DNA of 64,000 bases, taken from positions 25,051-89,050 of IMG/VR virus record IMGVR_UViG_3300020205_005279; one strand, written 5' to 3'. A program made the translations under genes and the position numbers. The notes beneath the pieces were generated by a model. The model was not told the DNA's origin and did not search any database. It saw only the letters and a program-made list of their open reading frames with translations. This DNA is from a virus. Every line of letters begins with the position of its first letter. The first letter of the stretch is position 1. This document shows, in pieces, positions 63,381 through 64,000 of this stretch.

Positions 63381-63457
63381 TTTAAGCCCCCGTTCCTTGG
63401 AGGACCCTTGGTGGCCACCGGCACTCCAGATTATCAGCTCTGGCGCAAAGTGGCAAG

Positions 63458-63529
63458 TCGGGGTGGGAGGGATCGAACCTCCGACATCCTGCTCCCAAAG
63501 CAGGCGCGCTACCGCTGCGCTACACCCCG
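63458..63529 (-). tRNA. trnP: tRNA-Pro(TGG)
   Basis: CCTGC-TTTGGGA-GCAGG. Confidence 0.96.
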
Positions 63530-63531
63530 AG

Positions 63532-63912
63532 ATGCCCCGATTTTACACGTGAAACGTCTCAAGGACGGACAGAGGTGGGGGCTTGCTTTCAGCAGGGCCT
63601 GCATATTGGCCGGTAAGAGCGTTCGCTCCAGCAACACCAATGGCAAAACAGCCCTCAAGAAAGCACCACATATTAACGCCTGTGTTCGTGGCCGTGGCGG
63701 GAACTTAACGACGTATTCCATACGACTCCGGAGTCTAGAACGGAGAGTTTGTGGTGAGGCAACAGTTAAAGACTGCTGACAACCTTGACTCTATTAAAGC
63801 CAAGGGCCTCTCACAATATGCCAGGTTTCAATTTTTATCACCCAGGATTATGGAAACCTGTAAGACGGCATCCTGGGATTTTGGGTTTAGGAGTTAAGAA
63901 CTCCGCACCCCA
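63532..63912 (-). ncRNA. Large ornate ncRNA candidate (~380 nt), compact GOLLD-like
   Basis: Two interleaved perfect 8-bp helices (pseudoknot) and multi-branch junctions; lies between two tRNAs; no convincing ORF. Confidence 0.6.
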
Positions 63913-63984
63913 CTGGCCCGGCAGGGATCGAACCTGCGACAACTTGATTAACAGTCAAGCGTTCTACCGCTGAACTACAGGCCA
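63913..63984 (-). tRNA. trnN: tRNA-Asn(GTT)
   Basis: CTTGA-CTGTTAA-TCAAG. Confidence 0.95.
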
Positions 63985-64000
63985 TTGAATAGGGGGGGGG

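Follow-up and report, generated by a model that had tools for sequence, protein, structure and literature searches.

The 383 nt that separate the tRNA-Asn and tRNA-Pro genes in the tRNA array of a cyanophage have been found to hold an H-type pseudoknot (PK), which on the covariation of its helices is genuine, together with two further covarying elements, termed Y and X. With moderate confidence, we regard the spacer as a chain of separately conserved and separately inherited modules rather than one integrated fold, and with the same confidence we suggest that these autonomous modules build up a composite RNA that would be cut out by tRNA processing. An initial annotation had suggested a structured non-coding RNA in a phage tRNA array, and both the covariation and the position between tRNA-Asn and tRNA-Pro have borne this out. 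Covarying homologues, which it had proposed to seek, have been found for PK, for the core and the 3' hairpin of Y, and for the X hairpin.

The window analyzed here is a whole stretch of 64,000 nt, corresponding to bases 25051-89050 of an 89,050-bp IMG/VR virus record, and its end is the contig end, which terminates at 63989-64000 in a G run (tagggggggggg) that is probably a sequencing or assembly end artefact. Encoded in the window are a tail sheath, a Mu-like protease/scaffold and a family-A DNA polymerase with a mitochondrial-type exonuclease domain. Because this polymerase is 70.8% identical to that of cyanophage S-TIM5 and the sole strong DNA match among public runs is a freshwater metagenome, the source phage has been read from its sequence as a freshwater TIM5-like cyanomyovirus. 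No RNA run was listed among the public matches. Sixteen tRNAs, all on the minus strand, have been located by ARAGORN at 60828-63984, and the spacer (63530-63912) is filled by the studied region (63532-63912); in a second assembly of the likely source sample, 63484-63997 is identical (0 differences). Both flanking tRNAs lie on the minus strand, and therefore the relevant RNA is the reverse complement. Positions in this minus-strand spacer RNA are denoted el, so that position p of el corresponds to 63913-p in the window (Table 1). Beyond tRNA-Pro, an unannotated spacer of 211 nt (63246-63456, minus strand), matched by neither Rfam nor the PK, Y and X profiles, leads to a 92-nt tRNA-like gene (63154-63245, minus strand), which ARAGORN calls tRNA-His with anticodon AUG and which stays below the Rfam tRNA threshold. 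Directly downstream of the array, a calcineurin-like metallophosphoesterase and a 190-aa ORF (59370-60582, minus strand) could have a relation to RNA-end healing or tRNA repair. A search of both strands of 63100-64000 has returned no sigma-70 promoter or intrinsic terminator, and no tandem repeats have been seen in 63200-64000. Single-sequence thermodynamics says little about the spacer, as its folding energy is only mildly better than that of shuffles on both strands (z about -1.9).

Table 1. Features of the Asn-Pro spacer in window coordinates, and abiF RNA sites of PK-bearing loci in the coordinates of each locus.
Feature	Position	Strand	Basis and remarks
tRNA-Asn(GUU)	63913..63984	-	ARAGORN; Rfam tRNA 70.4 bits; CCA not encoded; 3' end sets 5' end of spacer RNA
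Leader, hairpin GGAGUU-CUU-AACUCC (63899-63904/63890-63895)	63880..63912	-	sequence and MFE fold
PK module, H-type pseudoknot	63819..63880	-	covariation, CM R1, shuffle test
PK S1	63870-63877/63841-63848		el 36-43/65-72; perfect 8 bp
PK S2	63853-63860/63822-63829		el 53-60/84-91; perfect 8 bp, up to 10 bp in relatives
J module, predicted three-way junction	63747..63820	-	el 93-166; MFE and centroid fold
Y overall	el 167-329
Y 5' core	63661..63746	-	alignment A5; divergent L009 copy; CM R2 matches
Y P1	63741-63745/63726-63730		loop UUCUAGA
Y P2	63716-63719/63700-63703		loop UCGUUAA
Y P3	63696-63699/63677-63680		small pseudoknot, crossed by P4
Y P4	63688-63692/63665-63669		small pseudoknot, crosses P3
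Y 3' domain, long irregular hairpin	63584..63660	-	RNAalifold on 6 sequences: 5 compensatory pairs
X module	63530..63583	-	el 330-383; 15 distinct homologues
X closing helix GCCCC/GGGGC	63578-63582/63534-63538
X covarying hairpin CGUC-CUUGA-GACG	63564-63567/63555-63558
tRNA-Pro(UGG)	63457..63529	-	ARAGORN; Rfam tRNA 70 bits; CCA not encoded; 5' end (RNase P site) sets 3' end of spacer RNA
abiF RNA, L227 (S-SZBM1, OL473597)	3207-3243		Rfam
abiF RNA, L015	3581-3631		Rfam
abiF RNA, L053	1093-1129		Rfam
abiF RNA, L183	1110-1146		Rfam
abiF RNA, L188	664-714		Rfam
abiF RNA, L201	972-1008		Rfam
abiF RNA, L219	2614-2650		Rfam

The two interleaved 8-bp helices of PK had already been proposed to form an H-type pseudoknot, and they have been recovered at the coordinates first assigned to them. 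When the 383 nt were dinucleotide-shuffled 5000 times, an interleaved pair of perfect 8-bp helices arose in only 6 cases. Alignments of 7 sequences and of 21 distinct homologues have shown 93.7 and 92.1% of cells paired, with compensatory changes in 9 and 10 of the 18 pairs, respectively; in the larger alignment these fall on 5/8 pairs of S1 and 5/10 of S2, with up to four pair types per position. Observed percentage paired and covariation score have been matched by none of 500 shuffles (1/500 on the counts of pairs and types), and slid controls of the alignment reach 29-55% paired. MAFFT mis-registers helices in several places (L009 in Y, several rows of X, L033 and L046 in PK S2), and the counts there understate the pairing. 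Conserved loops are GCCRUUUG between S1 and S2, NUA, and UGRUAAAAAU or AGCGAGAAAAAU. The functional strand is that of the tRNAs, since a near-invariant U.G pair in S1 (20/21 sequences) has no equivalent on the opposite strand. A major-groove U.A-U triple helix, considered on account of the invariant loop 1 UUU and three invariant U-A pairs of S2, has been dropped as unsupported, because H-type geometry puts the UUU at the S2 end far from the A-U pairs.

The first PK homologues, a piece of ~60 nt, have been obtained from loci fetched via the polymerase, and further copies via a loop-based pattern, giving ~45 distinct copies on contigs of viruses and metagenomes and on a small one from a MAG. 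Covariance model R1 matches the window at 63813-63883 with 68 bits, and both the window and five large related records have one PK each. It is also present, unannotated, in the cultured T4-like Synechococcus phage S-SZBM1 (Kyanoviridae; OL473597 31589-31652, 79.5 bits, 35 nt after tRNA-Pro), and it is absent from the marine cultured phage S-TIM5 at E<=1. The module thus crossed between unrelated phage lineages, as judged from its occurrence in TIM5-like cyanophages of fresh and estuarine waters and in the T4-like S-SZBM1. A genome_contigs scan of cellular genomes has yielded a single true PK, in a contig of 2.2 kb that had been assigned to an Aquiluna MAG and is probably a mis-binned phage piece, besides three chance matches. 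Another PK-bearing contig (L046) carries a wcaG RNA (RF01761) at 1180-1284 on the minus strand, which suggests that it comes from a T4-like cyanophage.

The second module, Y, consists of a 5' core with two hairpins and a small pseudoknot, and of a 3' domain formed by a long irregular hairpin. The crossing of CGCC/GGCG by CCAC/GTGG, postulated from the single sequence, has been corroborated for CGCC/GGCG and (G)CCAC/GUGG(U) by compensatory changes in the alignment and in a divergent copy read by eye. In alignment A5 of the core, 95% of cells are paired and both-side changes occur in 4 pairs, a result reached in 0/500 shuffles. The divergent core (L009 916-1000) lies directly after tRNA-Glu and has kept all four helices with different bases (CUGGG/CCCAG, GAGAU/AUCUC, CGACG/CGUCG and ACCUC/GAGGU), two of them being mis-registered by MAFFT. 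Covariance model R2 of the core matches in 2/5 large records. The stems of the 3' hairpin are GCUUUC/GAAAGC and AGGGCU/GGCCCU plus inner stems, and in L021 an unrelated domain stands in place of the 3' domain. A pattern search with GTTCTAGA-N(20,36)-TCGTTAA has returned 119 loci, mostly by chance, and among them no new Y homologue.

In X, the inner stem has been seen as CGUC/GACG, UAUGCC/GGCAUA, CCGUC/GGCGG, CGGU/GCCG, GCGUU/AACGU and GCGAU/AUCGU; the hairpin forms in all variants that have been folded (6/13), the remaining ones having been read from the alignment. Conserved single strands are CCACCUCUG and YACGUGUUAAAU, and two to three copies have an additional inserted hairpin. Aligned copies whose downstream sequence has been read (14/15, all but L014) end <=7 nt before a tRNA, either Pro or Arg-CCU. 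As a promoter X has been rejected: it shows no sigma-70-type site, and its TTGA and TAAAAT-like words are spaced too closely.

The remaining parts of the spacer are less widely conserved. The leader hairpin is phage-specific, with no homologue found by nhmmer. In three Asn-Pro spacers with a different leader (L030, L031 and L049, near-alike in sequence), the first ~48 nt hold a hairpin CCCUCGUC/GACGAGGG, the loop of which (GCCUAC) pairs with a GUAGGC shortly after it, and this pre-PK leader looks like another small pseudoknot. The J module is closed by a GUGAG/CUCAC region and carries the arms CCUUGGCUUU/AGAGUCAAGG and CAGCAGU/ACUGUUG. The helices that had been read as a junction can be located in the sequence and recur in the MFE fold, but the only two homologues (L030 1225-1295 and L192) are ~90% identical, and their changes produce wobbles or mismatches and never compensate each other, leaving the predicted three-way junction unproven. 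A long-range helix between CUUGAGGGC, located in Y, and GUCCUUGAG, located in X, had also been put forward and is the sole helix proposed between modules. It fails the comparative test: L021 replaces the first strand entirely and keeps the second, which belongs to the local covarying hairpin of X.

The arrangement of these parts varies widely among relatives. Y and X are split by two tRNAs in L002, where the order is X, tRNA-Pro, tRNA-Ala, Y, tRNA-Phe; X follows directly on PK and precedes tRNA-Arg in L007; and L021 shows PK, 427 nt, tRNA-Lys, 82 nt, Y-X and tRNA-Arg. Seven loci (L015, L037, L188, L191, L196, L204 and L209) have PK alone between two tRNAs, ~40-50 nt after the first and 2-3 nt before the second, and an Asn-Pro spacer of ~170 nt (L211) contains PK and X only. 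Seven other Asn-Pro spacers (L030, L031, L038, L049, L050, L055 and L057) extend over 520-953 nt, with a different leader, PK, varied middle modules, and then Y-X or X alone; these long spacers have shown no conserved ORF and no Rfam match at E<=1. Whole-record searches of five relatives, themselves incomplete at 73-86%, have found PK in all five, the core of Y in two and X in one, three of these incomplete large records thus having PK without Y or X. Pieces that had been taken for one ornate fold are met apart, reordered, or separated by real tRNA genes. In the closest relative, L192, PK-J is followed by ~340 nt of other modules and then by Y-X, and these bases are missing in the studied spacer through a clean indel between AAAC and UCUCCG. 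The suggestion of a minimal version accordingly holds in so far as L192 has the same PK-J...Y-X layout with ~340 extra bases, and does not hold with regard to GOLLD.

Two recurrent elements have been noticed in the middle parts of such spacers. One is an odd tRNA-like element, not called by ARAGORN, in L192 (minus strand, between J and Y) and in L030 (~1050-1130), with an acceptor-like stem GGGAGU/ACUCCCA around two (L030) or three (L192) T-arm-like hairpins with GGUUCGAUUCC-type loops. The other is a module of L031, L049, L021 and L192 that starts with GAGGUAAGGAAAGCAAAAGGAGC and ends with CACCUGCCUC; its interior is variable, with repeated GUGACACGUGUGGAACG-like units, and the J hairpin AGCAGU-CUCUA-ACUGU recurs inside it.

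Regarding the release of the RNA, the 383 nt would be transcribed on the minus strand within the tRNA polycistron, since the spacer abuts the tRNA ends on their strand and no promoter or terminator has been found in 63100-64000. By analogy to established tRNA processing, RNase P would cut at the 5' end of tRNA-Pro, and an RNase Z-type enzyme would cleave behind the discriminator of tRNA-Asn, which encodes no CCA, as happens to CCA-less tRNAs in cyanobacteria. Both cuts together would probably release the 383 nt as a single RNA, in which PK would be the core element of a chain of leader hairpin, PK, J, Y and X. From the relatives the same modules would be released singly or in other combinations, and therefore each module would have to fold and act alone. 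Every module closes with a helix immediately ahead of the downstream tRNA, by which the new 3' end would be shielded.

An indication of what such RNAs may do comes from sister arrays. The abiF RNA (RF03085) has been detected above the gathering score in seven PK-bearing loci, S-SZBM1 included (Table 1), with 39-56 bits, which serves as a positive control for the abiF model. In the five loci compared (L227, L015, L053, L183 and L188), it shares the strand of the tRNAs and is followed by one of them after 4-5 nt, and the layout in S-SZBM1 and L053 is tRNA-Pro, leader, PK, middle, abiF RNA, tRNA-Ala. This element of ~37-50 nt shares with X the slot at the 3' end of a PK-containing spacer and a G/C closing helix, but the inner hairpin and the conserved single strands differ. 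X has been rejected as a divergent abiF RNA, as the abiF model misses X and the X model misses the abiF sites; with the Rfam model, no abiF RNA has been found in the window or in its whole source record. In abortive-infection systems, the HEPN RNase AbiF is neutralised through direct binding of the abiF-motif RNA (10.1101/2025.04.15.648962; PMC12737573), an RNA that has been reported in S-CREM1 (PMC9964418). No Abi_2 protein (PF07751) has been found in G000, in G002 or in the complete genome of S-SZBM1, and the abiF RNA of S-SZBM1 would therefore be an orphan antitoxin, which could most simply be understood as a counter-defence decoy. As the abiF RNA fills the slot of X in sister arrays, a link that is positional only, we tentatively suggest that the modules may be trans-acting, stable, protein-binding decoys, probably antitoxin mimics in counter-defence, a reading to which we give less than even weight. 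More speculative, and in our estimate rather unlikely, is the extension that tRNA arrays would be expression and processing cassettes for changing counter-defence RNAs, with PK, X and Y as new classes of antitoxin mimics or nuclease decoys moving between TIM5-like and T4-like phages.

The modules might instead act in cis during tRNA maturation, preventing misfolding of pre-tRNAs, positioning RNase P, Z or E, or protecting precursors, and be discarded afterwards. Distances within the arrays are indeed short and fixed, PK usually lying 38-52 nt after one tRNA and often 2-3 nt before the next and X ending within 7 nt of its tRNA, and the modules are almost confined to tRNA arrays. Most tRNAs of the same arrays, however, are 0-25 nt apart without any such element between them, so that processing does not need them; the tRNAs upstream and downstream vary freely in identity, the loops are conserved far beyond the needs of a spacer hairpin, and the trans-acting abiF RNA uses the same slot. 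We consider such a role in cis unlikely.

Less probable still is a single large RNA that folds as a whole, represents a new class and is functionally analogous to GOLLD or ROOL. PK on its 5' side and Y-X on its 3' side would be conserved, with a variable linker between them, and it would possibly be multimeric via palindromic loops; the studied spacer would be a minimal 383-nt version. The order tRNA-Asn, PK, variable middle, Y, X, tRNA-Pro does occur in ~10 distinct loci, and PK, Y and X may on this ground have a joint function; the middles measure 0-600 nt and sometimes include tRNA-like pieces. GOLLD and ROOL resemble the spacer in their phage origin, their location beside or within tRNA islands and their pseudoknots, the present case being found inside a 16-tRNA array of a TIM5-like cyanophage. 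ROOL has a length of about 580 nt. GOLLD, many members of which are above 800 nt, likewise combines a conserved 3' part with a variable 5' part near tRNA islands, sometimes with tRNAs in the linker (10.1101/2024.12.08.627333). GOLLD and OLE use palindromic kissing loops (10.1101/2024.12.08.627333), and the invariant loops UCUAGA of Y P1 and the ACGU core of CACGUG in X are palindromic as well, the one hint here of a homo-multimeric nanocage such as GOLLD and ROOL form. Among homologues, however, these palindromes are never replaced by other palindromes, and no covariation supports kissing. Unlike GOLLD and ROOL, the parts of the 383-nt spacer occur independently and have no supported tertiary pairing between modules: PK is found without Y or X, or between two tRNAs in many loci, two tRNAs separate Y and X in L002, and the sole inter-module helix fails.

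The comparison with known families points in the same direction. The GOLLD identity first considered, and that of ROOL along with it, have been checked with covariance models and discarded, as no match has been obtained and the spacer is less than half the size. Of the 4227 families of Rfam 15, tRNA alone scores above the gathering cutoff in the window; with the threshold relaxed to E<=10, the spacer still gives no meaningful match, whether it is searched within 3.5 kb or as 391 nt alone with lax filters, and the only family names in these scans are tRNA and a few chance matches. The segments thought to recall GOLLD thus match no family at this threshold. GOLLD, ROOL, tmRNA, RNase P RNA and the self-cleaving ribozyme classes are presumably contained in Rfam 15 and hence unmatched, and for the integrated RNA the lack of a match counts with this proviso. 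The absence of RNase P and tmRNA signatures noted at the outset agrees with ARAGORN, which reports no tmRNA, and with Rfam, which matches neither. Self-cleaving ribozymes (HDV-like, pistol, twister, hammerhead) have been rejected, as no Rfam family matches, and to our knowledge their topologies do not fit. For the pseudoknot module, which lies outside every family of Rfam 15, the initial annotation was right to raise a new class as the alternative. Judged by Rfam 15 and the searched literature, with a set of 10,006 viral candidate RNAs lying outside the comparison, PK, Y and X are undescribed RNA motifs.

That there is no functional RNA at all, and that the region represents short coding ORFs, a DNA-level site, or decayed remnants of tRNAs or mobile elements, is highly improbable: the region does overlap short ORFs, proteins could bind the DNA at the palindromes TCTAGA and CACGTG, and T-arm-like fragments occur in relatives' spacers, but the ORFs, which have been rejected as coding, are small and mostly lack an ATG start, keep neither their place nor their strand among homologues and have no Pfam match, indels between homologues are not multiples of three, and compensatory changes together with strand-specific G.U pairs show selection on RNA structure.

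For the composite of autonomous modules, two groups of RNAs invite comparison. T4 RNAC and RNAD (species 1 and 2) are non-tRNA RNAs whose genes lie inside the phage tRNA cluster. They are small stable RNAs, thought to be released with the tRNAs, and their function is unexplained (PMC9697503). They belong to another host and phage lineage and have no known pseudoknots, and they have been likened to the spacer by position and strand alone. The type III toxin-antitoxin RNAs (ToxI, CptI, TenpI) are small protein-binding pseudoknot RNAs as well, but they are tandem repeats cut by their own toxin, whereas PK is single-copy, non-repeated and flanked by tRNA-processing sites; there is no tandem repeat here, and what adjoins on either side is a tRNA gene and no toxin gene. 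Phage pseudo-ToxI is a mimic of an RNA of this type. According to PMC5772629, phage mimics can neutralise an abortive-infection toxin. By analogy, the nearest conceptual relatives are T4 RNAC/RNAD and the orphan abiF RNAs of cyanophage arrays.

The usual reading of tRNA clusters in phages goes no further than codon usage or anti-tRNase action. The spacers described here contain at least three conserved covarying folds (PK, Y and X) that lie outside Rfam, are shuffled cassette-like among phages and are common to two unrelated cyanophage lineages. A toxin-less abiF RNA in the equivalent slot provides a testable idea of what spacer RNAs may do, perhaps extending to T4 RNAC/RNAD, and the presence of PK in the cultured pair S-SZBM1/Synechococcus CB0101 makes the question experimentally accessible.
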